Shown here piece by piece: positions 14,913 through 40,447 of a stretch of DNA of 50,250 nt. Source of the DNA: Deinococcaceae bacterium (lineage in GTDB: Bacteria; Deinococcota; Deinococci; Deinococcales; Trueperaceae); contig JBDZWC010000005.1 in the NCBI GenBank assembly GCA_040256005.1, positions 1 to 50,250 of the forward strand. The letters run 5' to 3'. A program made the translations under genes and the position numbers. Positions within the stretch are counted from its first letter, which is position 1. Each line of letters opens with the position of its first letter. Below the pieces are notes generated by a model, which did no database searches, had not been told where the DNA came from, and saw only the letters and a program-made list of their open reading frames with translations.

Positions 14913-14926
14913 GGTAGCTTCAGCGC

Positions 14927-15753: not shown

Positions 15754-15757
<4 letters not shown>
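14927..15757 (+). CDS. ABC permease, NitT/TauT family
   Basis: Multiple TMs; EAA-like loop DMARAF...HVVFPQLLP; WKMVVLGELLG..SGVG. Confidence 0.9.
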
Positions 15758-16539
<782 letters not shown>

Positions 16540-16699
16540 AGGTTCACCCGAATATCACCGATATATAATCTGCGCTAGACTCGATCCTGCCAACCCGGTC
16601 GCCCGGTCCTGTCAAGGGGCATACGTCCCTGGGACGCGGCGAAGGGTGGACGACAACGAACTCGTCGGCCAGCACGCCGACCTAGGAGGTAGGCCACTC

Positions 16700-23253: not shown

Positions 23254-26200
23254 TCGATCCGAAGAGCACGACGATCGCCCCGTAGCGCAGCGCGAGCGCA
23301 GTGATGAACGAGAGCAGGGCTAGCACGAACCAGGCGGCCGGTGAGCCTCCCCAGACGAGATGGGGTGTAACGGCCGGGAGGTCCACCGCTACTCCGACGC
23401 TACCGCCCGTGGCTACCGCCAGGTCCGCCAGCGCCACGCCTCTTGACTGAGAGTGCTCCGACGGCGGGAGGGGCCAGTTCACGGCACGCACCACCGGTTG
23501 GCTCAGGCCCTGTTCCGGCACGGGCAACACAGTGACGGCCAAGGTTCCTTCCCAGTCATCTGATACCGCGAACCTGGCCACCGCACTGCCCGCCCCGCGG
23601 GGCGTGAGTTGGCTTCGGTTGACGACCTTACCGTCGGCGCTCAGTTCGACCAGCGGCAGGTCCAGCCCGTCCATCTCGAGCGGTACGTCGACCAATACTT
23701 GCAGGTACCCGCTGCCACCCTCCGTCCTCACGCTCCAGACGTCGCGGATGGGCCGCTCCGCCGTCCAACGCAGCGCCTGTGCCCAGAGCCGGCCGTAGAA
23801 GTCGGTCCCTTCCCACTCCTCCGACCATGGGCCGTCGGCGGCAGACGCGAACGCCACCACTCGGCCCAGCCCGTAACGCCAGGACGCGATCAACGGGTCT
23901 CCATGTTCCTGCTCGACGAGGTGCACGCTGGCCTCGTCCTTGGCCGTAGTGCGCACGTAGCCGCGCAAGGCGGGAGGCGCGTTGCCAGCTACGTCCTCGA
24001 GGGACCCAGACCCCTCAGCGTCGACCCAGCTGGCCGACGTGGTGCGCTCCTCGATCGGCTCGGCCGCCAGCATCAGGGCCTCCTGGGCAAGCAGGCCGGG
24101 CAGGGACCTGAAGTCGCGCGCCATGTGCAGGGAGCCCCCGCTCAAGCCCGCCAGCTTGTTGAGCTGTCGTCCATCAGCGCCGTCGCCCACTCCGACGAAG
24201 CTCACCGAGACGCCCATCTCGCCCAGAGCCGTCAGCACACCTTCGAAGTCGCCTTCTTGCGACAGGCCGTCCGTCATGACGACGACGTGCCTCGTGGCCG
24301 ACTCGTTCTCGCTTAGCAACCCGAACGCCGCCACAAGGCCCGGGTAGATCGCGGTACCGCCGGCGGCGCCGACGCCGGCGAGTGCGTCCCGGAACACCTG
24401 AGCTTCCACGACGGGCGTGAAAGGCAACACCACCTGTGCGCTGGTGTCGAAGACGACTATCGCGGCCAGGCTCTGCTCGCCGAGCAGCGCCAGGGCCTCG
24501 ACGGTTGCCGCCTTGGCCACGTCCATGCGCGTAGCGTCTCCCACGGGTCCGCTCATGCTGCCCGACCTGTCGAGCACGAACGTGATCGACACCTCGGGAG
24601 CATCCTCGCTGATGCGCGCCGACAGCGGCGACACCGACTCCAGCGGGGTGGTGTAGTACCCACCGGGTCCGAACGCCGAAGGGCCGCCGAAGATCGTCAG
24701 CCCGCCGCCCCACTCGCGCACGTACGCCTCCAGGGCGGCCTGGTACTCAGGGAACAGTTCGTTCGCAGAGACGTTCACTAGTAGCACCGCGTCGAAGACC
24801 GCCAAGTCCTCGGCTTCGCCGGGCATGCGGAACGGAGTGGTCCGCGTTACGTCCACCCTCTGGGTCCGCAACGCGGCTTCGAGTGCCGAGCCCTGGTGCT
24901 CGTCGGCTGCCACCAACAACGCGGAGACGGGAGGGCCTACGGCGACGGTGATGAGGCCGTCGTAGGTGGGGTCGGCTGCGCCCAGGGGCGTGAGCGTGAG
25001 CCGGTAGGTCGGATCCCCCGGGGGGCCAGCCGTCAGCTCCAGCGAGGCCGAGGACGGTCCACTGCCCCTTACCTCCACCCCGACGATCCGGTCGCCGGCA
25101 GCCTCCTCCCCGGGAGCGGTCGGCTCGAGTCGGGCGGTCCAACCCGTTTCGGTAGGCGCTTCGACCCGGATGTCGACGGAGAACTGGGCCCCCGATCTGA
25201 CGCGCTCGGGCCAAGTGACGGCGGTGACCGACAGGCGGTCGCCTGCGCGTTGCAGAGCGGGCGGAACGTCAGTCTCGACGACATGTAGCGACGTGGTCAC
25301 CGCTCGGGTCCGACGCCAAAGGTTAGAGGCGCTACCTACCTCGACCGGCATAGAGGGATCTAGTTCGACTATGACGGCGTCATCGCCCGGCGCTGGTGGC
25401 ATCGCGAGGGCCACCTCCAGCGCCAGCGCCGCGTCCGGTGTCGAGAGGTCGTCGCCTGGCCCTCGGCCCTGTGTGACGTTCGGCCCTTCGACCACCGCGA
25501 TCCGCGACCAAGTGCGTCCGGGGTTCTCCGTTCGAACGCGGGCGAAAGCTGTGTTGGAGGACGCCGGCCCCACCCACGTAGCACTGCCACCGGAGCGCGC
25601 GACCGGTACCCGAACACCGAGGACCCCTGATCCCAGCAGCGCCACCGCCGCGAGCAGGAAAGCGCCCTGGCGGCGCGACCGAGTCAGAGCCACCTCCTTG
25701 CGTGCCACAGCCAGGCCCGCTTCTACGAAGATCAGCAGCAGCGCCACGACGGCTGCCCAGCGCCAAGCTGGCAGGGCCGTAGGCGGAGGCGCCGCGGCGG
25801 GGACATCGCCGCTGGGCCTCCCCGCCTCGACAGGTGCGCTCACCACGGGCAGCTGTACGTCGCCCCCGGGTGACCGAAGCCGGTAGACGCCGCTGAGTTC
25901 GGGCCTGAAGCCATCGTCGAACCAGTCCTGGTCCCAGACCGCGTCCGCCAGTGGATCGCTGGGTACCGCGCGCGGCAACACGGGCGCCGCGATCTCGTCC
26001 CCTGCGGGGCTCACGAGTACCCAGTCCCCTGCGAAGGCCTCACGCGGCCACGGGCAAGATCGGGAGGTCCTGCAGCCGCTCGGTTGGTGAGACCACGCGC
26101 GCGGCGCCGCCCAGGCCACGACCTCCGCGACGAAAGCCGGGAAGCTCAGTTGCGACTGCCAGGCGCTGGACACGGGGTCGACCCCCACTACGATCTGCCT

Positions 26201-27559
26201 GCCGACCGTGGTCGTACGAGCCCAGGCCAGCACCTTGTCGCCCGAACTGAGCAGTGGCGTGGCACCTTCCAATGCGACGACCGGCTGGGCGCGACCGGCG
26301 ACCAACACCCCTGGTTCCAGGTCGCGTACGAGGACGTGAGCACCGGCACTAAGCGGGCGTCCTGCCAGCTCCACCGCCTCTCCGTCTCGAACCGCTTCCG
26401 GCACCGCCCCCAGCCAGAGGGTCGATGTCTGCGGTACACCAGGGAGGTCGTCCGTAACGATCGCGAGGTCGAAGAGGCGTGCTTGTTGGGGCGCTGGCAC
26501 GGCGGGCGCGGCATACACCTCCAAGTCCCCCACCGCTGCCAGCGCCCTCAGCAGAGCGTGGGGAGCCTCGCCCACCACGACCACGCGCACGGGCTCGGGC
26601 CGCAGCGGCACGACGACGCTGTCGTCGGCCGGTGCTTGGTCGCCGGTGGGGCCGTCGAGCCTCAGTTCTCCCGGGCCGGGCAGGTCGAGCGGCATCTCGA
26701 ACACAGCAGTGCCGTCAGCCGCCAGCACCACGTCGGTCCCGCCCCATGGCAGGAACGTGTCCGTGCCCGTTGACCGGTACGAGGCCATCACCCTGATCAC
26801 ATCGCCGCGCTCCAAGCCCGACGTCGTGACGGTGCCCGACACGTCCCACCGGTCAGGCCGGTCCCCACGCACCGTGGCATGAACGTCTCTGATGCCGACG
26901 TTCACCAGGTCGCCGCCAAGGGTCAAGTAGCTGACCCTGTCGGCGAGCCCAACCTCGGTCAGCGCCGACCGTGCCGCCTCGACCCCCTGGCCATCCGTGT
27001 AGACGACCACCCGGCCGTCTTCTCCTGCCAGGAGCTCAGCGCGTATGGCCGCGCCCCGCCAGTCCTCACGAGCTTCTCCGGCGGTGATGGCCGAGGTGAC
27101 ACGCGTGAGGTCGGGGCCGGCCGGCCAGCGCGCCGCCAGCACGGTCGCGGGTGCGCCCGCTCGGACGACGGAGACGGTTGCCTCGGTGTCCTTACGAGCG
27201 AACCGAGCCTCGATGTCAGAGATGGCGGCCGAGAGGCGATCGGGCGAAACGTCTCTGGATGACATCGCCACCGACGTGTCCACCAGCACGACCCAGTCCG
27301 TCGGACCGCTACCGTATCCAACCACAGGCCGTGCCAGGGCGAGCACCACGAAGGTCAGCGCCAGGGCCTGCAACCACAGCAGCGGGTCACGCCAAGGAAC
27401 GGACCTGACGCTGGGCGCGTTCAGTCCGTCGGCTGCGACCCGGCGCCAGATGAGCAGGTTCGGCACGACGACGTCGCGCCTGCGTCGGGCATGCAACAGG
27501 ACGAGCGCGGGCAAGAGCACCGGCAGCAGCCAGAGCCAAGCGCCGTGAACGAAGCTCAC
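23204..27559 (-). CDS. Large membrane VWA protein (BatA N-terminus, VWA, GATase1/DUF1355-like, VWA), ~1451 aa
   Basis: GTG 27559 overlaps the DUF58 stop; BatA-type PLLWLQALAL..ALARP; DTSVAM; GGGLTIFGGPSAFGPGGY; MIDAS DRSGSM..GGT..MTDG. Confidence 0.82.
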   Translation of the reverse strand: MSFVHGAWLWLLPVLLPALVLLHARRRRDVVVPNLLIWRRVAADGLNAPSVRSVPWRDPLLWLQALALTFVVLALARPVVGYGSGPTDWVVLVDTSVAMSSRDVSPDRLSAAISDIEARFARKDTEATVSVVRAGAPATVLAARWPAGPDLTRVTSAITAGEAREDWRGAAIRAELLAGEDGRVVVYTDGQGVEAARSALTEVGLADRVSYLTLGGDLVNVGIRDVHATVRGDRPDRWDVSGTVTTSGLERGDVIRVMASYRSTGTDTFLPWGGTDVVLAADGTAVFEMPLDLPGPGELRLDGPTGDQAPADDSVVVPLRPEPVRVVVVGEAPHALLRALAAVGDLEVYAAPAVPAPQQARLFDLAIVTDDLPGVPQTSTLWLGAVPEAVRDGEAVELAGRPLSAGAHVLVRDLEPGVLVAGRAQPVVALEGATPLLSSGDKVLAWARTTTVGRQIVVGVDPVSSAWQSQLSFPAFVAEVVAWAAPRAWSHQPSGCRTSRSCPWPREAFAGDWVLVSPAGDEIAAPVLPRAVPSDPLADAVWDQDWFDDGFRPELSGVYRLRSPGGDVQLPVVSAPVEAGRPSGDVPAAAPPPTALPAWRWAAVVALLLIFVEAGLAVARKEVALTRSRRQGAFLLAAVALLGSGVLGVRVPVARSGGSATWVGPASSNTAFARVRTENPGRTWSRIAVVEGPNVTQGRGPGDDLSTPDAALALEVALAMPPAPGDDAVIVELDPSMPVEVGSASNLWRRTRAVTTSLHVVETDVPPALQRAGDRLSVTAVTWPERVRSGAQFSVDIRVEAPTETGWTARLEPTAPGEEAAGDRIVGVEVRGSGPSSASLELTAGPPGDPTYRLTLTPLGAADPTYDGLITVAVGPPVSALLVAADEHQGSALEAALRTQRVDVTRTTPFRMPGEAEDLAVFDAVLLVNVSANELFPEYQAALEAYVREWGGGLTIFGGPSAFGPGGYYTTPLESVSPLSARISEDAPEVSITFVLDRSGSMSGPVGDATRMDVAKAATVEALALLGEQSLAAIVVFDTSAQVVLPFTPVVEAQVFRDALAGVGAAGGTAIYPGLVAAFGLLSENESATRHVVVMTDGLSQEGDFEGVLTALGEMGVSVSFVGVGDGADGRQLNKLAGLSGGSLHMARDFRSLPGLLAQEALMLAAEPIEERTTSASWVDAEGSGSLEDVAGNAPPALRGYVRTTAKDEASVHLVEQEHGDPLIASWRYGLGRVVAFASAADGPWSEEWEGTDFYGRLWAQALRWTAERPIRDVWSVRTEGGSGYLQVLVDVPLEMDGLDLPLVELSADGKVVNRSQLTPRGAGSAVARFAVSDDWEGTLAVTVLPVPEQGLSQPVVRAVNWPLPPSEHSQSRGVALADLAVATGGSVGVAVDLPAVTPHLVWGGSPAAWFVLALLSFITALALRYGAIVVLFGSIRAARRARTRTASLAR

Positions 27560-28434
27560 GTGATCACACCCTGCGCCCTCAGGTCGCGAACCACGTTTTC
27601 GTTGAGGGCGCCGCCGGCAGCGACCGAGAGCCACCTGCCTTCCACCGACCACACCGCCGAGCGCACGGCCTCGCTCCACTCCGACACTGCCGATCGGTAC
27701 GCCCGCCAGGTATGGCGGTCCGCGCGGCGATCGATTACGGCGCCGCTCTCGGCATCTATGAGCCTGACCCAGCCTGTGGGCCCCACCTCCGTCCCTGACT
27801 CGGCCGCGCCGAGTACCTGGACGGCCACCACCTCCTGCTCCCTCACCCGCCAAGCCCGCAGCGCTTCCGCGAAGCCCTCCACCAGCCAGTCGCTGATGAC
27901 GACGAGCACGCCCGGAGCGGCCAGCGCCTCCAACGAACGGGCCGCTAGCTGGTTCATGGGTACTTGGGCACCGCCTGGCCGCACGTCGCCGAGGCGATCC
28001 AACTCCCGCCACAGCTGGCGGTCACGACTGACGGTTCCACCCCATTCGACACGGTCATGCTTGGTGACACCGAAGCGGACCTGGTCAGAGCCGTTGAGCG
28101 CCACCTCACCGAAAACGGCGGCCAGCTGGACGGCGCGGCTCCACAGGGTCGGGTCGGCGGCCATCGAACCGCTGCCATCCAGGAGCACGCTCACGCGCAG
28201 GCGCTGCTCCACGTGATACTGCTTGACCACCGCTCGACCGTGCCGAGCGTAGACGTGTCTGTCGAGGTGCCTTAGGTCGTCTCCCGGCTCGTAGTCGCGG
28301 TACTCGGCGAACTCGATCCCAGCACCAACGGACCTCGACCGGCGTTCGCCGACGCCGACGTTGGCCGGCGCCGTCGATATCAGCCTGGCACCGCTCAGCA
28401 GCCTGCGCACTTCGCCAGACAGCCGGCCCCTCAT
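27556..28434 (-). CDS. DUF58 domain protein (MoxR-associated, MxaS-like)
   Basis: GIEFAEYRDYEPGDDLRHLD, LLDGSGSM, VVISDW. Confidence 0.9.
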   Translation of the reverse strand: MRGRLSGEVRRLLSGARLISTAPANVGVGERRSRSVGAGIEFAEYRDYEPGDDLRHLDRHVYARHGRAVVKQYHVEQRLRVSVLLDGSGSMAADPTLWSRAVQLAAVFGEVALNGSDQVRFGVTKHDRVEWGGTVSRDRQLWRELDRLGDVRPGGAQVPMNQLAARSLEALAAPGVLVVISDWLVEGFAEALRAWRVREQEVVAVQVLGAAESGTEVGPTGWVRLIDAESGAVIDRRADRHTWRAYRSAVSEWSEAVRSAVWSVEGRWLSVAAGGALNENVVRDLRAQGVIT

Positions 28435-29462
28435 CTGCTCCGGGCTGCCACCGCTTCGAACAGTTCCTCGATCAGGTCGTCGACCTCGATCCCGGCCGCC
28501 TCGCCCTCGAAGTTGACCTGGATGCGGTGGCGAAGGGCCGGCGCGGCGATCGCCCTCACGTCCTCGAACGACACGTTGAAGCGGCCGTCCATGAGGGCCC
28601 GCGCCTTGGCGGCCAGGACCAGAGCCTGCGCTCCGCGGGGGGACACCCCGTAGCGCACGTACCGCTTCACCCGCTCGGACGCCTCGAGCAACTCTGGCTG
28701 TGTCGCCCTCACGTAGGTCGCCACGACGGACCTGACCTCACTGGAGATCGGCACGTCCCGCGTCCAATGCTGCAAAGCGAGGACGTCCTCCGGCCCCATC
28801 GCGGCCTCGGGAACCTGCACCTCCACGCCCGTCGTAGCGTCGACGATCTCCTGAATGACTGCGTGGGACGGGAAACCCAACGTCACCTTGAAGAAGAACC
28901 TGTCGATCTGGGCTTCGGGAAGGACGTAGGTACCCTCCATCTCGATGGGGTTCTGCGTGGCCAGCACGAAGAACGGCCTGGGCAGCTCGTACTCGGTGCC
29001 CATGACCGTGACGGTGCCTTCCTGCATCGCCTCCAGCAGGGATGACTGCGTCTTGGGCGTGGCACGGTTGATCTCGTCTGCCAACACCATCTGGGCGAAC
29101 ACGGGTCCGGGTTGGAAGACCGTCGACATCCCCCTGCCGGCATCCCCGGGCGCCAGCGTGTATGTGCCCGTGATGTCGGCCGGCATCAGGTCTGGGGTGA
29201 ACTGGATCCGGTTGAGCTTCAGGTTGAGAACTGCCCCCAAAGTGCGGACGAGGAGCGTCTTGCCCAAGCCTGGAGGGCTCTCGATCAGGACGTGACCGCC
29301 GGCGAGCAGCGCTACGAACGCCTGGTCGATGACCTCGGGTTGACCGACGACGACCCGTCTTACCTCCTGACGAGCTGCCTCCAACCTTCGGAGCGTGTCC
29401 TCAAGCCTCGAGGCCTCATGCTCGGGACCGAGAGAGGGCGCCTGCATCAGCTCGTCTTCCAT
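28431..29462 (-). CDS. moxR: MoxR family AAA+ ATPase
   Basis: GHVLIESPPGLGKT, RIQFTPDLMPADITG, LADEINRATPKTQSSLLEAMQE, ATQNPIEMEGTY; start ATG 29462 after GAGGTG. Confidence 0.93.
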   Translation of the reverse strand: MEDELMQAPSLGPEHEASRLEDTLRRLEAARQEVRRVVVGQPEVIDQAFVALLAGGHVLIESPPGLGKTLLVRTLGAVLNLKLNRIQFTPDLMPADITGTYTLAPGDAGRGMSTVFQPGPVFAQMVLADEINRATPKTQSSLLEAMQEGTVTVMGTEYELPRPFFVLATQNPIEMEGTYVLPEAQIDRFFFKVTLGFPSHAVIQEIVDATTGVEVQVPEAAMGPEDVLALQHWTRDVPISSEVRSVVATYVRATQPELLEASERVKRYVRYGVSPRGAQALVLAAKARALMDGRFNVSFEDVRAIAAPALRHRIQVNFEGEAAGIEVDDLIEELFEAVAARSR

Positions 29463-29484
29463 CTCACCTCGCGGGTAGGGCCGC

Positions 29485-30987
29485 TCACGGCGCCCCGTCG
29501 CCAGAACTCGAGTCGGGCGTGAAGTAGCGGCCGACCACATCGCCGTGCTCGGCGCCCACGCCCCGCGCCACGATGGCTGCCTCGCGAGAACGCACGAAGT
29601 CGGGCGCCAAGACCGGGGCTTCATCGTCGCTGGGCCGCTCTTCGGCTTGCGGTACCATCTCGATCTCTACGCGGCGCCCCTCCGTCGACTCGTTACGAGG
29701 CAGCAGGGACTCGGCTACGGCGGCAGCCTGAACGGCAGCCACCGGGTCGAACATCTCGGGCAGGGCGGCCGCGCCGGCGCCGGCCGCGTCCCCGGCGCCT
29801 TCGGTCGAGCGCTGTGCGGCGCCCGCCGGGTCTCCGGCGCCCTCGGCGCGAACCAGCGGGCCCGCCGGAGCCGCCGCGTTGGGGTCTGCCTGCGCTCGAC
29901 CCACGCCGCCGTAGAAAGAGTCGTCGATCGTCTGCCCATCGGCCGCCGGGCCGGTGGGCCGCAGACTCGCGCCACCGCCATCCTCGAGCTCGTCGACCAA
30001 GCTGCGAAGTGCCATGTAGAGAGAGGCGCTGTCGTCGGGGGTCGCGGTCTCCACGGCCGCCTCAGCATCTTCGGTCTGCGCCGTCTTCAACTGGCCGTTC
30101 GACGCGTTGTCTGCGCCCGCGAGTGGCGAGCCCGAGGCAGCCGTCGCGGGCACCTGCGCCAAGGCGTGCTCTACCGCTGACGCCAGGCCGCCGCCGGACC
30201 CCGAGACCGCCGTGCCCAGATGCGCCAGGAGGTCTCGCACGGCCCTGTCAGCCCCTGCTCTGGTCAGGTCCCCGGAGGTGGCCTCGGTGGCCAGCTCCGC
30301 GAACGAGGCTGCGATGGCACGCAGGTACTGATCGCCGGACTGCTCGGCTGAGAGGTCGAGCAGCCGGGCGACGTCTTCGAGGGTCGCTACTTGGTCCTCG
30401 GTCAGCGGCGCTTCACCGTTTCCGGCCGCAACGGCGGCGGTCGAAGCTGTTGGTCTCCCCGGGACAGGGACGAAGACCGCGACGGCGGCCAGCGCCAGGC
30501 CGGTCACGGCCGCCGAACGCAGAACCCCCAGCCGATTGTCGCCTGAACTCGTGTCGAGGCTCTCCGCCCTGGTCTCGGCGTCCGAGACCAGCATCCGCGC
30601 TACGACGGTGTGCGCGCCGCCGGCTTTAATGACCTCCCAGGCCGTTGACAGCGCCTGCATGTGCCGCTGCCTGTGGTCCGCCCTACGGGCGAGCTCGAGT
30701 AACGACGGCGCTCTGATCCCATGCCAGGCAGCCACGACCAAGAACGCGCCCAGGAACGCCGTAAGGGCTGCCTGGCCCGCCCTGCCCGATACGGATGGCG
30801 ACGCGAACACCGGACCAGTCTCACCGGCCAACCATGACCAAAGCCAAACCACAACGACCGCGAAGGAAGCAGCCGTCACGGCGACCGTCAGGGTCCGTCG
30901 GGCGGCGGAGTTCCACCAGGCGCGACGTGCCCGCCTCAGCGCTCGGTGAAGGTTGCTCTGTGGCAGCGCTCGGTACTGCGCCAGCAT
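29485..30987 (-). CDS. Hypothetical membrane protein of the MoxR operon
   Basis: Three hydrophobic segments, Ala/Gly-rich linker and C-terminal VVGRYF, a layout common in MoxR/VWA clusters. Confidence 0.65.
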   Translation of the reverse strand: MLAQYRALPQSNLHRALRRARRAWWNSAARRTLTVAVTAASFAVVVVWLWSWLAGETGPVFASPSVSGRAGQAALTAFLGAFLVVAAWHGIRAPSLLELARRADHRQRHMQALSTAWEVIKAGGAHTVVARMLVSDAETRAESLDTSSGDNRLGVLRSAAVTGLALAAVAVFVPVPGRPTASTAAVAAGNGEAPLTEDQVATLEDVARLLDLSAEQSGDQYLRAIAASFAELATEATSGDLTRAGADRAVRDLLAHLGTAVSGSGGGLASAVEHALAQVPATAASGSPLAGADNASNGQLKTAQTEDAEAAVETATPDDSASLYMALRSLVDELEDGGGASLRPTGPAADGQTIDDSFYGGVGRAQADPNAAAPAGPLVRAEGAGDPAGAAQRSTEGAGDAAGAGAAALPEMFDPVAAVQAAAVAESLLPRNESTEGRRVEIEMVPQAEERPSDDEAPVLAPDFVRSREAAIVARGVGAEHGDVVGRYFTPDSSSGDGAP

Positions 30988-31118: not shown

Positions 31119-33113
31119 TCACTGGCACCCAGGCACCTCAGGCACGTCAACGGCGCCAACCAACTCCGCCACCCCCACCTGCTGCGAGAGGTTGCGGCCC
31201 CACGGCGCACCCGGCACGGGGCGCACCACGTATAGCGGCTGCTCTAGCTGCCGCGAGTCCGAGTCGAAGGCAAGCGGCCGCCCCTTGGCGAGCTCGTGCG
31301 GCCCACCGAGCAAGAACTCTTCCAGCGCACCCTGCTCCAGCCCTCCGGTCTCGGCGGCTGCCTGTCCGACCAGCGTCACGGCCGCGTAAGCGGCCCAGGC
31401 GTGCGGGTCCATCGGACGGCCGAAGCGCGAGGTGAAGCGCTCGTTCAGGTCCGCCGCGGGACCTTCCGCCAGCGTCGTCTCCCACATCACTACGCGCTCG
31501 GGCACGCCGCTGGGGTTCAGGCGGGACGCGGCGGCGATGTAGTCGCGCGACTGGGTGGCCACGGCGGGGTACGGCACGATCGTCATCTCGGGTCCGAGGG
31601 CGGCCGCCTGCGCCAGGAAGGCTATCTGGTCGGGGGCTCCCAGCAGCACCAGGACGGCGTCGGCGCCTTCCTCGCGCGCGGCGTTCAGCTCGTCCGCGTA
31701 CACGGGGTCCGCCTCGGCCACCACGCTCTCGCCCACGACCTCGGCTCCCGTCTGCGCCACGATCGCGCCGAAGGTCTCGGCGACCCGCGACCAGCGATCG
31801 TCGTCCAGCCTGACCACGTGCCAGCGGGTGACGCCGGCGTCGCCGGCTCGAGCCGCGATCGCCGCGGCGTACAGGTCCGCGCTGGGGGCGACGTGGAACG
31901 TGGCTGTGCATCTGAGTGCCGGGTCATCGTCCCCGATGTTCAGGTTCGCTACGCCAGTCTCCGCCGCCACGTCGGCGAGAGCGGCCGCTTGGCCGTCTCC
32001 CAGGCCGCCTATGAGCACACGAGCGCCGTCTAGGTGAACGAGGCGCATGGCTGCCCTCTTGGCCGCACCGGCGCTGGGGGCGTTGGCGAAGACGACGTCG
32101 AGCGAGGAAGCGCCGTTCGACACCATCACGTCCTCGGCCAGCAGCGCGCCGGCGCGCGCGGCGTCGCCGACGACCTCGAACAGAGAACCTGCGACGGTCC
32201 GCGAGCCGGTCCGGTTGGGTCCCACGTAGCCAACGACGAGCCGTTCTACCGTCTGCTCCGGCGGCGCGGGCGCTGGGCCCGCGTCGACGAGCGGGACCGC
32301 GTACTCTTCGAGGACGGCTTGGATGTCATCCCAGCGCCGGACGATGGCCAGGCTCAGGCTGTCCCTGAGCGCCTCGTCGCCCTGTCGCACGCCGATCGTC
32401 ATGGGCAGCTGCAGGTTGGTGAACGGCGGCATGGGATCGATAGCGGGTTCGATGGGCACGACGACCAGCTCACCGGGGTGTTGAGCGGCGTAGTAGCCGG
32501 CCGACGGCCCCCACGAGACGCCCACGTCCACCTCGCCAGCGAGCACCGCCTCCACGAGCCGGGCCTGCGGGTCGTCCCGCGGCGCGTAGCGCGTGCTGCC
32601 GTACTCGGCCACGATGCTGTCGGCCAGCCCACGCGCCAGGAGCGAATCGTGCGGCGGCATGCCGGCGTTCTGGAGGCCGATCCGCAACTCTGACAGCACC
32701 GGATCGTCCAGCGACGTCACCTCTATGCCCGCGTCTGCTCGGTACACGAAGACGTAAGGGCTCGTGTAGTACGAGATGGTCGTGAGCAGCGGCTCAGCGC
32801 CGTCGGGCACGCCCATGACCACGTCGCAGTAGCCACCTCGCAGCCGCAGGTCGATCATGTCCTGCATCTGGGGGTACCAGTCGAAGCTCAGCGTCGCCCC
32901 CAGCTCCTCAGCCAATATCCCCGCGATGACGTTCTCGTAGCCCTCCGCGCTGCGGTCGCTCAGCGGCATGGCGTGTGGGTCGGCGCAGACGACTAGCTCC
33001 CAGGTCTGGCCCGCCTCCCCCTGCGCGCTGGAAGAAGCGGGGGCTAGAAGGGCGAGCACGAAGAAGGCGGCGGCGGCCTTGGCCGCCAGCCGCCTGGGAA
33101 GGACCCCGCTCAC
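31119..33113 (-). CDS. Fusion: XoxJ/MxaJ-like domain + LutA/PedA-type binding domain (copy B); start uncertain (GTG 33113 or ATG 33161)
   Basis: LVVCADPHAMPLS..GYENVIAGILAEELG..WYPQ..GYCDVVMGVP..YYTSPYVFVYR (classic MxaJ/XoxJ); C-half NLNIGDDDPALRCTATFHVAPS..SRQLEQPLY. Confidence 0.85.
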   Translation of the reverse strand: MSGVLPRRLAAKAAAAFFVLALLAPASSSAQGEAGQTWELVVCADPHAMPLSDRSAEGYENVIAGILAEELGATLSFDWYPQMQDMIDLRLRGGYCDVVMGVPDGAEPLLTTISYYTSPYVFVYRADAGIEVTSLDDPVLSELRIGLQNAGMPPHDSLLARGLADSIVAEYGSTRYAPRDDPQARLVEAVLAGEVDVGVSWGPSAGYYAAQHPGELVVVPIEPAIDPMPPFTNLQLPMTIGVRQGDEALRDSLSLAIVRRWDDIQAVLEEYAVPLVDAGPAPAPPEQTVERLVVGYVGPNRTGSRTVAGSLFEVVGDAARAGALLAEDVMVSNGASSLDVVFANAPSAGAAKRAAMRLVHLDGARVLIGGLGDGQAAALADVAAETGVANLNIGDDDPALRCTATFHVAPSADLYAAAIAARAGDAGVTRWHVVRLDDDRWSRVAETFGAIVAQTGAEVVGESVVAEADPVYADELNAAREEGADAVLVLLGAPDQIAFLAQAAALGPEMTIVPYPAVATQSRDYIAAASRLNPSGVPERVVMWETTLAEGPAADLNERFTSRFGRPMDPHAWAAYAAVTLVGQAAAETGGLEQGALEEFLLGGPHELAKGRPLAFDSDSRQLEQPLYVVRPVPGAPWGRNLSQQVGVAELVGAVDVPEVPGCQ

Positions 33114-33135: not shown

Positions 33136-35157
33136 TCAGTATCCGTCGCTACCTCCGTCATCACCGGCGGCCCCACCGCCGGCATCATCGCCCGCACCGC
33201 CCGCGTCGTCACCGGCAGCACCGGCGTCGTCACCGGCTTCACCACCGGCTGCGCCACCGGCCGCCCCACCGCCGTCCTCGGCTTCACCACCGGCTCCGCC
33301 GTCGTCCTCGGCGCCCTCGGCGCCGGCGGGAGTCGCCGTCTGATCCGGCGTTACCCCGGCCACGTCATCGGGCAACGTGAAGACGTAGAGCGTCGAACCG
33401 GCGCGACGGTAGCGGTCTTCTTCGTCCGGTTCGGCGTCGACCTCGACACCCAACCTGCCCGGGCCGCTCGAGGAGATGACGGCGACGTACTGCTTCCCGT
33501 CGGGCCCCAGGTACGTCATAGGTGAGTTGCTGAAGTCGGCCCCCGCCATGAACTGCCACAGGACCTCGCCCGTGGTCGCGTCTATCGCCCTGAACTCGCC
33601 CAGCTGACCGCCTTGGAACACCAGGTTGCCAGCCGTCGTGAACACGGGCTTGTTGTCCGAGCCCATCGCCTCGATGCCCCACGCCTGTTCGCCCGTCACC
33701 GGGTCGATGCCGACCAGGCGGTTGCCCCAGTCGCCGTTGCCGTCCGGGCCCAGGTAGCTCTCGACCGTCTCCCTCAACCGGTATGACTCGCCCGGGACGT
33801 ACTCGCCCGCGAAAGCCCGCCAGTCACCGCAGCGGTTGCGTTCGCTGAAGTAGACGAGGCCGGTATCAGGGTTGTAAGCCTGGTTCTCCCAGTTCGTGGC
33901 CGCGATCAGCGGGCACAACCCTTCCGTGATCACGTCGGTGTAGACCTCGCGCTCCGGGTCCATGATCGGACGACCCGTCTCCATGTCGAAGCCAGTGGCC
34001 CAGGTGACGGGCGAGTGCATCCACGGCTCCTCGAGGAGCTCGCCCGTCTGGCGGTCGAACACGTAGAAGAAGCCGTTGCGCGCCGCTTTGATGAGCGCAG
34101 GCACCGTCTCTCCGTCGATCTCGAGGTCGACGAGGATGTTCGGTCCCGGCTCGTCGAGGTCCCACGGGTCCTGCGGTGTGAGGGTGTACGCCCACATCAG
34201 CTCGCCCGTGGTGGCGTCGCGCGCCAGCAGCGAGGCGCAGTACTTGTTCGGGTACTCGAAGTAACCGGGTGCCGTGGCAGGGTCGCGCCGGTAATCAGGG
34301 TTCCCCGGCGAGCAGTTGCCCGTGGAGTAGTAGAACCAGTCCAGCTCCGGGTCGTAGCTGAACCAACCCCAGACGCTGCCGCCGCCGATCTCCCACGAGT
34401 CGCGCCACCACGTCGAGACGCCTGGCTCCTCGACCTTGTCGTCCTCGTAGAACGGCGCGAACGAGTCGGTGATGCCCATCTCCTCGTTCGGGCCGGTGTT
34501 GTACATCTTCCAGACCTCGTCGCCCGTCTTGAGGTCGTAGGCGGCGACCCAACCTCGGACGCTGTACTCGCCGCCGGCGATGCCCGTGATGAGGTGGTCG
34601 TGCACGATCAGCGGAGCCAAAGTCGTGGTCTCGCCTATCGAGAGGTCCGCGATCTGTTTCTGCCAGACGATCTCGCCGGTCTCGGCGTCGACGCCGAACA
34701 GCTGACCGTCGAGCGAGTTGAAGTACAGCATGCCGTCTGCGTAGGAAACGCCGCGGGTCTGGCCGCCGCAGCAAGCCACGGCCAGCGCCTGCTCGAGCTC
34801 CGGCATGTCGACCGCCAGGGCCCACTTGACCACTCCGGGCTCGTTCAGGTCGATCGCGTAGAGAACGCTGGGCTTGGGCGTGACCAGGTACATCGTGTCG
34901 CCCACCACTAAGGGCGCGCCCTCGTGCGAGTCCAGCACGCCGGTCTGGAACGTCCAAGCGACCTGTAGCTGGTCGACGTTCTCGGTGTTGATCTGGTCGA
35001 GCTCGCTGTAGTTCAGAGCCGCATAGCTGCCGTTGGGCATGACCCACTGCCCGGGGTCCTCCTGTAACTGCAGCAACTCGTCGTTCGCTAGGGCCATGCC
35101 GCCCACCGCGAGACACGCGGCGGCCGTCAGTGCCGTGATCGTCCTGGTCGCTCTCAT
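33136..35157 (-). CDS. PQQ-dependent methanol/ethanol-family dehydrogenase 3, putatively lanthanide-dependent
   Basis: Signal peptide; HEGAPLVV, vicinal ACCG, GGEYSVRG (Glu), STGN (Asn), DPWDLD (Asp-x-Asp), ARNGFFY; RBS GGAGG before ATG 35157. Confidence 0.9.
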   Translation of the reverse strand: MRATRTITALTAAACLAVGGMALANDELLQLQEDPGQWVMPNGSYAALNYSELDQINTENVDQLQVAWTFQTGVLDSHEGAPLVVGDTMYLVTPKPSVLYAIDLNEPGVVKWALAVDMPELEQALAVACCGGQTRGVSYADGMLYFNSLDGQLFGVDAETGEIVWQKQIADLSIGETTTLAPLIVHDHLITGIAGGEYSVRGWVAAYDLKTGDEVWKMYNTGPNEEMGITDSFAPFYEDDKVEEPGVSTWWRDSWEIGGGSVWGWFSYDPELDWFYYSTGNCSPGNPDYRRDPATAPGYFEYPNKYCASLLARDATTGELMWAYTLTPQDPWDLDEPGPNILVDLEIDGETVPALIKAARNGFFYVFDRQTGELLEEPWMHSPVTWATGFDMETGRPIMDPEREVYTDVITEGLCPLIAATNWENQAYNPDTGLVYFSERNRCGDWRAFAGEYVPGESYRLRETVESYLGPDGNGDWGNRLVGIDPVTGEQAWGIEAMGSDNKPVFTTAGNLVFQGGQLGEFRAIDATTGEVLWQFMAGADFSNSPMTYLGPDGKQYVAVISSSGPGRLGVEVDAEPDEEDRYRRAGSTLYVFTLPDDVAGVTPDQTATPAGAEGAEDDGGAGGEAEDGGGAAGGAAGGEAGDDAGAAGDDAGGAGDDAGGGAAGDDGGSDGY
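33139..33330 (-). repeat. Low-complexity acidic Gly/Ala repeats (AGDDAG, AEDDGG) at the dehydrogenase 3 C-terminus
   Basis: GAEDDGGAGGEAEDGGGAAGGAAGGEAGDDAGAAGDDAGGAGDDAGGGAAGDDGGSDGY. Confidence 0.85.
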
Positions 35158-35257: not shown

Positions 35258-36193
35258 TCACCGCCGCTCGGCCACCTGCTCCGGGGAGACTGGGCCGAAC
35301 GAGTTACCCCACGAGTTGCGGATGAACGTGGCGACCGCGGCGATCTGCTGGTCGTCGAGCTGCCCACCGAAGGCCGGCATGCCGTGATCCGGACGCCCAC
35401 CCAGGATCGTCGTGATGACGCCGTCGGTGCGCTCGAGGAAACGGTTGCCCGCGAGGCTGGGGCCCACCAGGCCCTGACCCTGGTTGCCGTGACATGGGGC
35501 GCAGGTGCTGCTGAAGATGGACTGACCTTGGTCCATCAGGTCCTGCGGCACCTCCCCCTGTCCTCCGGCCGCCCCGCCCTCCTGGGCCTCGTCCTGCTGG
35601 CCGCCCGCGGGTTGCTCGCCCGCGCCTTCACCGGCGCCTTGCTCGCCTTCACCTTGCTCGCCGGCGCCGTCAGCCTCGGCGGCGTCGCCCTCGTCACCTT
35701 CCGCCTGCTCGCCGCCCTCTTGTTCGGCCTCGGGCTCGTCCGGGCTCTCCGTGGCGGAGGCCATCTCGACGATCGCGTTGCCGTCGGGCGACATGAGGTG
35801 GAACACGTCGCCGAGCGCCTGCCCGCGGATGTCGCCTTGCTCCTCGTCGCGCTCGTTGTAGTAGAGCGGCCAACCGTTGTAGGTCGCCTGGATCGAGCCG
35901 TCGGGCCGCTCGTAGGTGCCGGCGAAGTTGGCGTTCACGCCCTCCGCGACCGTCACGTCGCCCTCGACCGTGTACGGCGGCCAGTTCTCCATGCACTTCT
36001 CGGAGGTGCAGGCGCTCTCTCCGCCTTCGTCCATCGCGTACACGTAGAGGCTCATGCCTTGGGAGTCGGCCAGGTACTGGCCCCAATCCGGGTCCTCCCC
36101 GACGGTAAGGACCGGTGCCGCCACCTCCTGGGCCAGCGCCAGGAACAGCAGAGCCGCCACCACGAGCGTGACGGTCGTCCTGATTCTGGGCAT
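35258..36193 (-). CDS. Secreted COG4315 domain + class I cytochrome c fusion (copy B)
   Basis: Signal peptide; GMSLYVYAMD..SACTSEKCMENWPP, TYNGWPLYY; long E/G/Q linker; CAPCH and GMPAF. Confidence 0.85.
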   Translation of the reverse strand: MPRIRTTVTLVVAALLFLALAQEVAAPVLTVGEDPDWGQYLADSQGMSLYVYAMDEGGESACTSEKCMENWPPYTVEGDVTVAEGVNANFAGTYERPDGSIQATYNGWPLYYNERDEEQGDIRGQALGDVFHLMSPDGNAIVEMASATESPDEPEAEQEGGEQAEGDEGDAAEADGAGEQGEGEQGAGEGAGEQPAGGQQDEAQEGGAAGGQGEVPQDLMDQGQSIFSSTCAPCHGNQGQGLVGPSLAGNRFLERTDGVITTILGGRPDHGMPAFGGQLDDQQIAAVATFIRNSWGNSFGPVSPEQVAERR

Positions 36194-36454: not shown

Positions 36455-37372
36455 TCAGCGGGCGGCCGAGGTCATACGACGCATCGCCCACGCGGCGACG
36501 ACGGCCGCCACTGGCGCCGCACCGAACGTCACCGCCAGGTCGGCCGCCATGGGCAGCTGCTGGAAGCGCAGCAACACGTAACGCAGCAGGTCGAGCTGGT
36601 AGCTCACGGGGTTCACATAGACGAGCGCCTGGATCCAGCCCGGCAACTGCACGACCCAGCCACCTCCGATGGCGAAGATGCCGAGGCGCCTGAGCTCCTC
36701 ACGCAGGTGCTCGGGGATCTCCAGGAAACCCACGCCGCCGATCACGCCTCGCAGGGGGAAGATCGACCCGGACAGGAAGTACAGCGGCTGGATGACACCG
36801 TTCGAGATGCTGCCGAAGCCCTCGAACGTCTTGAGGCGCGTGGCGATGATCACGCCGAGCGCCGTCATGAACAGCCCCAGGAAGAACATGACGACCCAGG
36901 CGCCGAGGACGGACACCACGCTCAGCCGGACACCGATGAGCGGAGTGAACAGCAGCGGGATCGTGCCCTGAGCCACCGAGATCGTCGCCCCGCCGAGCAG
37001 CTTGCCTAGCGAGACGGAGAAGATGGGCGCCGGCGAGACGACGACCTCGCGCAGGATCCCAACCTCGCGGTCCCACACCAGGGCGATCGCGCACTGCAAG
37101 GCGGCGAAGAGGACGTTGAGGACGATCACGCCGGGCAGGATGTACTGCGCGTAGCTGTAGCCTTCGATCTCGCGCAGGGCAGCGCCCAGACCGAAGCCCA
37201 GGATCACGAGCCACAGCACGGTGCGGGAGAGGCCGCCGAACATCTGCGACCGGTCACGCCAGTAGCGCAACATCTCCCGGCGCCACATGACCCACACGAC
37301 CGCGGGGGCGAAGCCCGCCCACGAGCGTGGCGCGGCGGCCCTGACGCCGGGGCTGGAGGGGACCGTGGTCAA
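36455..37372 (-). CDS. ABC-2 type permease (PedC/LutF-like)
   Basis: Six TMs; YILPGVI, WDREVGILRE, FLSGSIFPL, VNPVSY; TTG start overlaps the ATPase stop. Confidence 0.85.
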   Translation of the reverse strand: MTTVPSSPGVRAAAPRSWAGFAPAVVWVMWRREMLRYWRDRSQMFGGLSRTVLWLVILGFGLGAALREIEGYSYAQYILPGVIVLNVLFAALQCAIALVWDREVGILREVVVSPAPIFSVSLGKLLGGATISVAQGTIPLLFTPLIGVRLSVVSVLGAWVVMFFLGLFMTALGVIIATRLKTFEGFGSISNGVIQPLYFLSGSIFPLRGVIGGVGFLEIPEHLREELRRLGIFAIGGGWVVQLPGWIQALVYVNPVSYQLDLLRYVLLRFQQLPMAADLAVTFGAAPVAAVVAAWAMRRMTSAAR

Positions 37373-38229
37373 CGCGTGTGCTCCCCTCCACGCCGGGCGA
37401 AGCTCACCATCTTGTCCCGCGCGGTGGCTGCGTCGTCACGGAGCTGCTTGCCCGTCAGGGCTATGAACACGTCCTCCAGGTCGCCGTCTTCCGCCGGGGC
37501 ATGCCTGGCCACGAGTTCGGCGGGCGGGCCGATCTCGACCAGTCTGCCTGCGTCTATGATGCCGACCCGATCGCAGGCCTCCGCCTCGGGGAGGTTGTGC
37601 GTCGTCATCAGCACCGTCATCCCCTCGCGCCTGAGGGCGTCGATCCGCTCCCACAGGTGACGGCGTCCTTGCGGGTCGAGGCCCAGCGTGGGCTCGTCGA
37701 GGAAGAGGATGCGGGGAGCGTGCATGAGCGCCCGCGCCAGCTCCAGGCGCCGCTTCATGCCGCCGGAGAAGCCCCTGACACGGCGCCCACCTACGTCTGC
37801 CAGCGAGGCCCACTCCAGGGCATGAGCCACAGCGGTCCGCACCTGGCCTCGGGGCACCCCGTAGAGCACGGCGTGTATCTCGAGGTTCTCCGTCGCCGTG
37901 AGCCGCTCGTCGAGCGCGGGCTCCTGGAACACCATGCCGAGGAGCCTGCGCACCGCCTGCGGCTCGGAGACGACGTCGTGGCCCAGCACCAAGGCGCGGC
38001 CGGCGGTGGGCCGAAGCAAGGTCGTGAGCATGTGGATCGTGGTCGTCTTGCCGGCCCCGTTCGGGCCCAGCAGCGCGAAGAACTCGCCGCGATGCACGGT
38101 CAGCGAGAGGTCCTCTACCGCGGTCACGTCACCGAAACGCCGCGTGAGGCCCTCCGTCACGATCGCGGGGGGCCCGCCGGCGACCTGTCGGTCGTTCAGC
38201 GGACCCCCCTGGGCGGCATCCGGGCTCAT
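37369..38229 (-). CDS. ABC-2 ATP-binding protein (PedB/LutE-like)
   Basis: GPNGAGKTT, FSGGMKRRLELARAL, LDEPTLGLD, TTH. Confidence 0.92.
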   Translation of the reverse strand: MSPDAAQGGPLNDRQVAGGPPAIVTEGLTRRFGDVTAVEDLSLTVHRGEFFALLGPNGAGKTTTIHMLTTLLRPTAGRALVLGHDVVSEPQAVRRLLGMVFQEPALDERLTATENLEIHAVLYGVPRGQVRTAVAHALEWASLADVGGRRVRGFSGGMKRRLELARALMHAPRILFLDEPTLGLDPQGRRHLWERIDALRREGMTVLMTTHNLPEAEACDRVGIIDAGRLVEIGPPAELVARHAPAEDGDLEDVFIALTGKQLRDDAATARDKMVSFARRGGEHTR

Positions 38230-38254: not shown

Positions 38255-39358
38255 TCAGCCACCCAACGCCTCGTGAGCCTCCTGCAGCGCTTCGAGCAGC
38301 TCGCGGCAGGCCGCCGCGGGATCTTCCACGGGGACGAACTCCTCCTCGTCCTCGTCTTCGTCCTCTTCTTCTTCCTCCTCGACGCCCTCGAGCTCGGGCT
38401 CCAGGCCGGTCAGCGCCACGATCTGCTCGCTGGCCTCCTCGTGGACCTCGGGCGCCATGAAGCTCAGGAAGCTGGCCAGGTCGGCGCTGAAGTAGAGGTA
38501 ACCGACGGCGATCACACCCTCGACGGCCAGGTCGTCGTCGCCCGCGTCGTAGGCCTCGCAGTAGCCGGCCAGCTGATCAGGCAACTGGGCGGAGAGGGCG
38601 AAGAGGTCACGACCGGGGAACAGCTCGGCGTCCACGATCGCCTCTAGCAGTCCGATCACGCGCTGCACGGGCGCCTCGGCCTCCTCCGGGTTGCCTACGA
38701 TGGCGTTCTCGATGGTGGCCTCGGGGTAGAGGGTGCCGAGGAACTCCCACATCTCCTCGACGTCTGCGCGGTGCTGTTCGTCAGCGGCGGGTGCCACCAC
38801 CGCATCCCAGATGTCCACCACGCGCGCCAGGGACACGTAGCCCATCGTGTACGCGCCCAGCTCGCCTTCGGTGGCCTCCTCGTAGCCTTCGCCCACGCCG
38901 CCCTCGCCCAGCGAGAGCTCCACGATGAGCGCGGCCGCGAACGCGGGGTCGGAACGCACGTCGGCTGGCACCACGAGGTCGTAAGCCTGCTGGAGGAGCT
39001 CGCGAGCCTCCGCCACTGCTTCACCGGAGACCTCACCGTCCTCGGCGGCCTCCTCGACCTCCTCGACGGCCTCCTCCAACTCCTCCGCCAAGTCGGCGTC
39101 GGCGCGGGCCACGGAGCCCATGAACCGGCGCAGGTCGGCGTCGAAGCCCTCGATCACCTCGAGGTAGTCGTCGTCCAGGTCGTCACCCACGAGATCGAGG
39201 ACCTCGAGCCGCAGCAGCGCCAGCTCGAAACCGTACGCCTGGCTGACGGCGAGCGTGTCGTCGAAGAACGGCCGCTGCGAGTACTGCGCCGACGCGGTTC
39301 CGGCGAAGAAGAGCGTCGCCGCGATCAGAAGCGCCTTGAGGCCGCGCTCAGTCGTCAC
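38255..39358 (-). CDS. Hypothetical secreted, highly acidic helical protein
   Basis: Signal peptide (..GTASAQ); about 25% Asp+Glu by hand count; overlaps the upstream beta-propeller gene; high-GC3 coding pattern. Confidence 0.8.
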   Translation of the reverse strand: MTTERGLKALLIAATLFFAGTASAQYSQRPFFDDTLAVSQAYGFELALLRLEVLDLVGDDLDDDYLEVIEGFDADLRRFMGSVARADADLAEELEEAVEEVEEAAEDGEVSGEAVAEARELLQQAYDLVVPADVRSDPAFAAALIVELSLGEGGVGEGYEEATEGELGAYTMGYVSLARVVDIWDAVVAPAADEQHRADVEEMWEFLGTLYPEATIENAIVGNPEEAEAPVQRVIGLLEAIVDAELFPGRDLFALSAQLPDQLAGYCEAYDAGDDDLAVEGVIAVGYLYFSADLASFLSFMAPEVHEEASEQIVALTGLEPELEGVEEEEEEDEDEDEEEFVPVEDPAAACRELLEALQEAHEALGG

Positions 39359-40391
39359 CCGGGATCACCCCGATCTCTGCGGAGTGCGCGCCGCGACCCG
39401 CCTGGATGCTGCCGACCACGCACAGGCACTCGGTGTCGATGACGGAGATGCTGTCCGAGAGGCCGTTGGCCGTGTACACGGTGGTGCCGTCCGGGGTGAT
39501 GGCGATGCCCCACGGGCGCCTGCCCATCTGCTCCCGGATCGTCGCGACGATCTCGTTGTTCGTCGTGTCTATCACGTAGACGGCGCTGGTGCCGCCGCCG
39601 GCGACGTAGAGGCGGCTGGACGTAGGGTCCACCGCGATCTCAACCGGCCGTGAGTCCAGGCCCAGGTTGATCGTCTCGATGACCGAGTGGGTGCTCGTGT
39701 CGACGACAGAGATGGTGCCGCCGATCTCGGCGGACACGTACGCCCTGGTGCCGTCGTTCGAGAACTCGACGACGCGGGGGCGGTTGCCGACCAGGAAGTG
39801 CTTGACTACCTGGAGGCTCTCGCGGTCGACGACCGTGACGGTGTGCGTGGCCTCGGCCGTGATGTACACCCACTTGCCGTCGGGGCTGATGGCGACGCCC
39901 TCGGCCTCGACGCCCACGCGGAAGTTCGCGAGCTGCTCACCGGTCGCGACGTCGTAGCCGGCGCCCTGGGCGATCGCTTCCAGGGCCGCCCACACCTGGG
40001 TGCCGTCGGGGCTGACCGCGACGCGCTCCGGGTTGCCGCCCGCGCGGAACTCCCCGACGACCTCGTTGGTACGCACGTCGATGGCGACGATCTTGTCCTC
40101 CGGCGTCTCGATCTGCGGGTTGAAGTCGCTGATGGAGACGTAGATGATCGCGCCGTCGGGGCTCACGGCCATGCCGCGGGGCCGCACCTCGCCGGGCCGG
40201 CCGGAGATCGTGATCGTGTCGATGACCTCGTTCGTCGCGGTGTCCACGACGGTGATGTCGGCGCTGTACTCGTTGGCCACGTAGAGGCGATACGCGTCCG
40301 CCTCCTGAGCCACCGCCGTTCCGAAGGTCAGGGCCAGTGTCAGCGTCGCCAGTACGCCGAACGCTCGTTGCTTCACGGGCTGTGCTCTCAT
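39348..40391 (-). CDS. YVTN beta-propeller, PQQ-catabolism associated (LutB/PedA2-like)
   Basis: LYVANE, PRGMAVSPDG, VGVEAEGVAISPDGKW, YVSAEIGGTISVVD, RRPWGIAITPDG..YTANGLSDSISVID; ATG 40391 after GAGGAG. Confidence 0.85.
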   Translation of the reverse strand: MRAQPVKQRAFGVLATLTLALTFGTAVAQEADAYRLYVANEYSADITVVDTATNEVIDTITISGRPGEVRPRGMAVSPDGAIIYVSISDFNPQIETPEDKIVAIDVRTNEVVGEFRAGGNPERVAVSPDGTQVWAALEAIAQGAGYDVATGEQLANFRVGVEAEGVAISPDGKWVYITAEATHTVTVVDRESLQVVKHFLVGNRPRVVEFSNDGTRAYVSAEIGGTISVVDTSTHSVIETINLGLDSRPVEIAVDPTSSRLYVAGGGTSAVYVIDTTNNEIVATIREQMGRRPWGIAITPDGTTVYTANGLSDSISVIDTECLCVVGSIQAGRGAHSAEIGVIPGDD

Positions 40392-40447
40392 GCTCTCCTC
40401 TCGCCCGCCGGCCGTCCGCCGGCGGAACTCGACAGCTTCAGTTCCCT

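Follow-up and report, generated by a model that had tools for sequence, protein, structure and literature searches.

A XoxJ-type domain joined to a LutA-like binding-protein domain behind a PQQ dehydrogenase gene of Deinococcota: a possible two-domain maturation factor

Why is a XoxJ-type domain joined in one chain to a binding-protein domain behind a PQQ dehydrogenase gene, and what does the second domain contribute? XoxJ, MxaJ and PedG (TIGR03871, TIGR03870; PDB 6onp, 9ism) of described organisms are single-domain proteins. The product of the gene described here, copy B, resembles them in that its N-terminal half passes the TIGR03871 cut-off and its gene follows those of a PQQ dehydrogenase and a cytochrome c, but it belongs to a Deinococcota host and has an extra second domain of 370 residues. 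The window, which is the whole stretch of 50,250 nucleotides that was analysed, contains the following features.

31119..33113, minus strand: fusion gene copy B (signal peptide, XoxJ domain, linker, LutA-like domain; 664 aa)
33024..33113, minus strand: predicted signal peptide of copy B, residues 1-30, judged by eye
32286..32996, minus strand: XoxJ-type domain of copy B, residues 40-276, above the TIGR03871 cut-off
32250..32285, minus strand: proline-rich linker of copy B, about 12 residues
31119..32249, minus strand: Liv-fold binding-protein domain (C-half), LutA/PedA1-like, with 17 of 23 signature residues and a TIGR03863 score under the cut-off
33136..35157, minus strand: PQQ dehydrogenase 3, the likely client (TIGR03075 above cut-off; closest solved structure 4mae)
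35258..36193, minus strand: cytochrome c, the likely electron acceptor, with Lipoprotein_15 repeats
36455..37372, minus strand: ABC-2-type permease in the PedC/LutF position
37369..38229, minus strand: ABC ATPase, DrrA-like (TIGR03864 below cut-off)
38255..39358, minus strand: acidic protein that falls into no known family; conserved, between the propeller and ATPase genes
39348..40460, minus strand: YVTN beta-propeller in the PedA2/LutB position, single-copy in each genome, with 224 bits on TIGR03866 (cut-off 287)
40448..41743, minus strand: stand-alone paralogue of the C-half, a binding protein in the LutA/PedA1 position
19505..21508, plus strand: fusion gene copy A, behind dehydrogenase 1, 40% identical to copy B over its full length
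13917..16539, plus strand: PqqT-like binding protein, ABC permease and ATPase, likely for PQQ scavenging
23204..30987, minus strand: ORF of unknown function, MoxR-like ATPase, 292-aa ORF and VWA protein, directly downstream of copy B

The fusion in copy B is real, intact and conserved. Its translated frame begins with GTG and is free of stops for 664 residues; database gene callers place the start 25 codons earlier, which gives 689 residues. The first-pass annotation described a single reading frame joining a XoxJ half to a paralogue of the stand-alone protein at 40448-41743, directly downstream of dehydrogenase 3. The translation, the profiles and the contigs across the junction bear out the first point, and a gap of 22 nt between the stop of dehydrogenase 3 and the start of copy B, on the same strand, bears out the second. 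The junction between the XoxJ domain and the C-half is bridged without gaps by contigs of all three DNA runs, which come from different studies. The 90% cluster of copy B has five members, four of them full-length two-domain proteins and the fifth a fragment crossing the junction. The gap-free contigs and the cluster members rule out a frameshift or mis-assembly as the source of the fusion. The linker is 11-24 residues long in 73 fused homologues, with a median of 14. Contigs of RNA run X17, all of one study, cover the cytochrome and the dehydrogenase and not the fusion gene, from which we draw no conclusion, and scans for promoters and terminators gave matches at chance level.

The N-half is a XoxJ-type domain. 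Residues 40-276 align to positions 2-232 of TIGR03871 with 213 bits, a marginal pass of the cut-off of 212.15, below which copy A remains with 166.8 bits. The MxaJ equivalog TIGR03870 is failed (107.2 bits; cut-off 258.1), and the best solved relative is XoxJ (PDB 6onp, E 7.7e-33). The XoxJ-type gene of the window lies beside genes for a PQQ dehydrogenase and a cytochrome c; among 15 related loci, the dehydrogenase is directly upstream in 13 and directly downstream in one, the remaining locus being too short. MxaJ retracts MxaF's roof sheet and so lets PQQ bind (PMC12276312). By analogy with MxaJ, the only one of these proteins for which this has been shown, the N-half likely enables PQQ loading of the apo-dehydrogenase.

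Dehydrogenase 3 is, from its residues, likely lanthanide-dependent. It has the vicinal cysteines and the Glu, Asn and D-x-D of the metal site, and its WDLDE, GGE and GN motifs align with those of the XoxF structures 4mae and 6dam. The lanthanide-type D-x-D, the extra Asp of which has a lanthanide role (partial text of 10.1101/2020.02.25.964783), is kept in 42 of 43 dehydrogenases from the fetched loci and the host genome. The identity of the dehydrogenases tracks that of the N-halves (r 0.90) better than that of the C-halves (r 0.72), with kinship inflating both values. Dehydrogenases 1 (17598-19355) and 2 (21517-23253) appear to form an atypical clade. They are without the vicinal cysteines, and at their metal sites Asp replaces Glu and Gln replaces Asn; in dehydrogenase 2, alone among the 43, the first Asp of the D-x-D is replaced by Gly.

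The identity of the C-half is more difficult to define. It matches Pfam Peripla_BP_6 and is 33% identical to the stand-alone protein over 388 residues (E 2e-29). The motif that the two had been said to share can be read from both translations, as NIG-x5-LRCTATFHVAPS in the C-half and NIG-x5-LRQEQCEATTFHIAPS in the stand-alone protein. The closest solved structures are the Liv-fold ligand-binding proteins 3i09, 3i45, 3n0w and 4ey3, and matches in the ESM Atlas are generic Peripla_BP_6 clusters only. The proposed membership of the C-half in TIGR03863 does not hold. Residues 348-632 score 64.2 bits against a cut-off of 413.6, the stand-alone paralogue scores 140 and two proteobacterial controls 478 and 484, and none of 61 relatives is above the cut-off. 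The TIGR03863 score was rejected as proof of a LutA, since a branched-chain-type binding protein of Skermanella outscores the C-half (73 vs 64 bits). In the tree, 18 TIGR03863-type rows form a branch of their own with support of 100, and the C-half falls outside it. A sister grouping of the C-half with TIGR03863 has support of 89 and 81 and is one of two possible placements, because the Skermanella protein, whose gene lies beside a branched-chain permease, fits as well (p 0.64 for grouping the C-half with it, a slightly better fit).

In gene position and signature residues the C-type family nevertheless resembles LutA/PedA1, although the LutA/PedA-type label does not amount to family membership. 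Unfused C-type genes precede a YVTN propeller and an ABC ATPase and permease in the window (the stand-alone copy) and, in the split state, in genomes G217, G219 and G237, as in pedA1A2BC, where the likeness extends to an ABC-2 transporter. A fused C-half precedes the propeller and transporter in G221, a position that copy B does not occupy. The permease of the window is of the ABC-2 type, which it shares with those of three proteobacterial lut/ped-type operons; it differs in this from a branched-chain permease. That PedA1 is the binding protein of its operon, as the first-pass annotation assumed, agrees with the partial text of PMC6839425. A signature of 23 columns was defined from TIGR03863 and the unfused members, so that the high scores of those rows are circular. 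Copy B has 17 of these residues, fused C-halves have 17.3 on average (range 11-23), the Skermanella protein has 16 and seven ordinary Liv-type proteins have 3-6. R523 and W544, both common to TIGR03863, are invariant in all fused, split and stand-alone rows. The C-half is similar to LutA of M. extorquens and PedA1 of P. putida (TIGR03863) in fold and signature motifs, but it is only about 21% identical to TIGR03863 members, fused, present in several copies and faster evolving.

The host genome, G000 (3.1 Mb, 69% G+C, 96.8% complete), encodes five PQQ dehydrogenases and four XoxJ-C-half fusions, one per dehydrogenase module; a whole-genome search found no free xoxJ. The stand-alone binding protein, YVTN propeller, acidic protein, ABC ATPase and permease are present as a single unit. 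The C-type gene has thus been copied along with xoxJ and not with the transporter (four fusions vs one propeller/ABC unit), and the paralogous C-halves are 28-39% identical to one another. The genome, at its 96.8% completeness, has no match to pqqE; there is none to pqqC either, a weak blank because the control matched nowhere. The PqqT-like protein of the window has the Lys matching PqqT K142, and its ABC system is likely, by sequence, a PQQ scavenger serving the five dehydrogenases.

Among 364 Deinococcota genomes surveyed, 40 have xoxJ, usually fused. Besides the host genome, these are 33 of 127 Trueperaceae and six of 68 genomes of another family of the same order; the other four families have none. 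Of the 70 xoxJ matches, 57 are in frames of at least 590 residues, and all 21 long-frame loci examined have both domains in one reading frame. A contig end truncates one of the 13 short frames; the other 12 are unfused, and a C-type gene follows each of them directly. At 12 split junctions, ten from Deinococcota and two from an alphaproteobacterial bin, the second gene starts between -4 and +17 nt from the xoxJ stop. Because every second gene begins with a start codon of its own and, by eye, a signal-like leader, sequencing errors were rejected as the source of the split forms. In the class of the alphaproteobacterial bin, two of 121 genomes have the C-type family, both in the split arrangement. 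The same gene set occurs in two genomes of this class (L015, L085, L116), for which transfer and mis-binning are both possible. The propeller has 37 matches in 37 Deinococcota genomes, vs one to seven xoxJ genes per genome. Both are present in 34 genomes, xoxJ only in six, the propeller only in three and neither in 321, counts in which kin genomes are not independent and seven of the nine discordant genomes are less than 90% complete. The dehydrogenase modules of these Deinococcota genomes appear to make up a lanthanide-type family.

A protein search returned 26 homologues of full length, including the cluster of the window itself, and a profile search 50 full two-domain proteins among the 150 representatives listed. 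Their taxonomy is mostly absent; the named ones are Trueperaceae or Deinococcales, with one labelled Bacillota (P0053), where transfer and mis-binning are again both possible. From the counts across Deinococcota and the alphaproteobacterial class, the fusion architecture is restricted to a few lineages and is not widespread. It also appears to be undescribed, its parts being known. The literature searched, mostly open-access main text, yielded no XoxJ-LutA or XoxJ-LutB fusion; in particular, the accessible text of PMC12997753, PMC6850437, PMC13583147, PMC11845868, PMC9291206, PMC11331073, PMC8457098 and PMC8498564 mentions none. The same search found no dedicated paper on lanthanide-type dehydrogenase modules of Deinococcota. 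The only published XoxJ fusion found is XoxGJ of Methylacidiphilum (partial text of PMC8498564). It is likewise a natural fusion of XoxJ with a partner from the same dehydrogenase system, but the partner is a cytochrome c and a separate xoxJ is kept, whereas in copy B the partner is a binding-protein domain, and its genome yielded no free xoxJ.

Related genomes indicate how the fusion may have arisen. In G217, G219 and G237 the order is dehydrogenase, xoxJ, one binding protein, propeller, acidic protein and ABC transporter. The order in G221 is the same, except that xoxJ and the binding protein form one gene, and no other binding protein stands before the propeller and transporter. Two binding proteins are encoded in tandem in G258 and G062, and G220 has two fusions and a free copy of the binding protein. 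In Paracoccus alcaliphilus, xoxG, xoxJ, a true TIGR03863 gene and the propeller gene are consecutive. From this gene context, an ancestral operon might have had the order dehydrogenase, xoxJ, lutA-like gene, propeller, a further gene and ABC transporter, with xoxJ and the binding-protein gene translationally coupled. Fusion would then have involved the loss of a stop and of the second signal peptide. In Trueperaceae the binding protein would have been duplicated, one copy remaining beside the single propeller/ABC-2 unit and the other accompanying each xoxJ and its dehydrogenase.

On the C-domain tree, fused and split rows are intermixed, with nine changes, at least three of them forced by starred branches; the root is uncertain, so that gains of the fusion are indistinguishable from losses on this tree. 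A single ancestral fusion was rejected (AU p 1e-7 for holding the fused rows together). Both trees are quick trees with SH-aLRT support only, using 92 and 50 of 224 rows; 39 fragments or frameshifted pieces were dropped beforehand, and the alphaproteobacterial copy L033, with frameshifts inside both genes, was omitted. The fused proteins P0008 and P0024 are labelled 'other' in one of the trees and were counted as fused in the change count, the AU test, the comparison of conserved residues and the signature analysis. The trees suggest that the fusion of XoxJ and the C-half arose more than once. This recurrence within Deinococcota is weaker evidence than it appears, because translationally coupled neighbours fuse easily.

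Other lineages have fused XoxJ independently, with the propeller, with a LutA-like domain of one lobe, or with the two together. The sample comprised 120 listed relatives of one XoxJ-propeller protein and ten relatives of one XoxJ-lobe protein. Among these listed relatives, the LutB/PedA2-type propeller follows XoxJ in 49 proteins and precedes it in four, a one-lobed LutA-like domain without profile positions 141-260 is joined to XoxJ in four, and P0246 (NCBI HEX2189543.1) is a triple XoxJ-lobe-propeller fusion. The lobe boundaries behind this designation we take to be those of LivJ. The XoxJ parts of four tested fusions are 41-78% identical to other stand-alone XoxJs vs 36-52% to the Deinococcota halves. 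The partners of the one-lobed domain (P0246, P0194, P0230-P0232, P0233) are XoxJ, XoxJ with propeller, or a membrane protein PF09678. XoxJ is also fused to a cytochrome (P0176, P0224) and to a dehydrogenase (P0342). It thus fuses readily with several neighbours, and any one fusion therefore weighs less. Given the one-lobed versions, the C-type domain may act as a scaffold and not carry cargo.

The dN/dS ratios place the fused C-half under purifying but relaxed selection. In close fused-fused pairs, the values are 0.06-0.28 for the N-halves and 0.12-0.40 for the C-halves, the latter in 31 pairs. Between copy B and its orthologue in G003, the C-half is 57% identical (dN/dS 0.39) and the N-half 82% (0.17); the neighbouring dehydrogenase is 86% and the stand-alone binding protein 74% identical, and the C-half is the fastest-changing part of the copy B cluster. 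Where a fused copy serves, or may serve, as the main binding protein (G221, G220), it has 22-23 signature residues, with all 23 in G221; the fused copies of the host genome, which has a free copy, have 11-17. We read this pattern as suggesting a division of labour after duplication, which weakens the idea that the fused proteins bind the transporter in the way the free copy does.

Copy B may be best explained as a secreted two-domain maturation factor of the neighbouring, likely lanthanide-dependent dehydrogenase, in which the C-half is a co-chaperone of XoxJ; we give this a probability of about 0.5. The XoxJ half would hold the apo-enzyme open for PQQ loading, as MxaJ does, and the LutA-like half, judging from the linkage, would assist on the same apo-enzyme, probably at the lanthanide-loading step. 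That the two domains are always fused or adjacent, their repeated fusion, the fusions of other lineages and the conserved D-x-D suggest a functional link. The coupled delivery of cofactor and metal proposed by the first-pass annotation is supported to the extent of this link; as worded, it depended on a C-half that fails the TIGR03863 cut-off.

Mutants in described systems provide relevant background. On methanol with La, lutA and lutB mutants grow at 0.02 per h and xoxJ mutants at 0.04 per h, lutA mutants deposit La in the periplasm, and the authors considered that XoxF1 may be made and yet not metallated (partial text of PMC7391723). Loss of pedA1A2BC raises the La need of PedH-dependent growth 100-fold, with pedE repression and pedH transcription intact (partial text of PMC6839425). 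In the accessible parts of these two papers, the role of LutA is inferred from mutants only. Several observations count against a maturation role in the periplasm: cytoplasmic La uptake depends on the transporter (same partial texts), apo-PedH takes up lanthanide in vitro unaided (partial text of PMC6839425), and MxaFI was matured in E. coli from nine genes without a LutA-like protein (PMC12276312). The metal step could also be performed by the MoxR/VWA set adjoining copy B instead of by the C-half, as the genes at 23204..30987 resemble the MxaR/VWA metal-insertion set. MoxR-like ATPase and VWA genes recur beside such dehydrogenase modules (L001, L085, L087, L116, L117, L120); they recall MxaR and VWA of calcium-enzyme assembly and are found here beside lanthanide-type enzymes.

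It is also conceivable, if somewhat unlikely, that coupled genes merged for convenience, with one shared signal peptide and a tether of no mechanistic role. XoxJ would chaperone PQQ loading, and the second domain would keep its own transport-type job or slowly lose it. The short distances at all 12 junctions, the interleaved states with nine changes, and the greater divergence of fused C-halves, which are losing signature residues, are consistent with such a merger, and part of the fusion signal is cheaply explained by it because the genes are often translationally coupled neighbours. It fails to explain why each xoxJ copy brought a C-type gene with it when there is only one transporter, or why XoxJ and the propeller are joined in either order and once in a triple fusion, and the dN/dS values are well below 1.

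The stronger form of the earlier proposal, in which a lanthanide chelate or PQQ would be bound in the cleft of the C-half and passed on to the apo-enzyme held by XoxJ, is improbable. Both lobes are kept in the Deinococcota fusions, R523 and W544 are invariant, lutA mutants accumulate periplasmic La, and the clients carry D-x-D. The one-lobed versions, on the assumed lobe boundaries, could not close a cleft, the C-half has no obvious acidic excess (45 D+E in 345 residues vs 36 in 239 in the XoxJ half), PQQ could be handled by a separate PqqT-like protein, and the literature examined names no LutA ligand. Binding of the enzyme's organic substrate or a related molecule by the C-half, to concentrate it at the dehydrogenase or signal its presence, is very unlikely: the closest structures are Liv-fold ligand-binding proteins, the Skermanella protein with its 16 signature residues is a possible sister group, and the C-halves of the host genome diverge as expected of substrate-specific domains, but XoxJ-type proteins act on the apo-enzyme and then leave, which makes them a poor site for a substrate feeder, and the permease of the operon is of the ABC-2 and not the branched-chain type.

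If copy B is a two-domain maturation factor, it might belong to a larger apparatus. By a tentative analogy, which we consider rather doubtful, XoxJ, LutA/PedA1 and the LutB/PedA2 propeller could form one periplasmic assembly line, driven by the ABC-2-type LutEF/PedBC, that loads lanthanide into PQQ dehydrogenases as NosDFY does for copper and is not only an importer; the Trueperaceae fusions would then be client-specific heads of one shared machine. NosDFY acts mechanically, not as an importer. In the NosDFY-NosL system an ABC complex and a periplasmic partner are likewise needed to mature a periplasmic metalloenzyme (partial text of PMC8457098), but the likeness is one of analogy only, with no homology seen between the periplasmic parts. 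Such an assembly line would explain the 100-fold higher La need upon loss of pedA1A2BC with the switch and pedH transcription unchanged.

The accessible text of PMC7391723 states that the way and the site of lanthanide entry into XoxF-type enzymes are unknown, and that of PMC6839425 raises the question why a periplasmic enzyme should need cytoplasmic uptake. Fusions that tie a PQQ-loading chaperone to LutA-like or LutB-like domains point to a hand-off in the periplasm. As natural single-chain constructs they make lanthanide insertion directly testable, and the main value of the present observations lies in the recurring tie of XoxJ with lutAB-type genes.

The acidic protein at 38255-39358 is secreted-looking, has an Asp/Glu tail and no match in Pfam or NCBIfam, and is always encoded between the propeller and the ABC ATPase; from its sequence it is a candidate metal binder. 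The cytochromes c at 16427-17509 and 35258-36193 have two Lipoprotein_15 repeats before the heme domain, an arrangement that is kept across the related loci.
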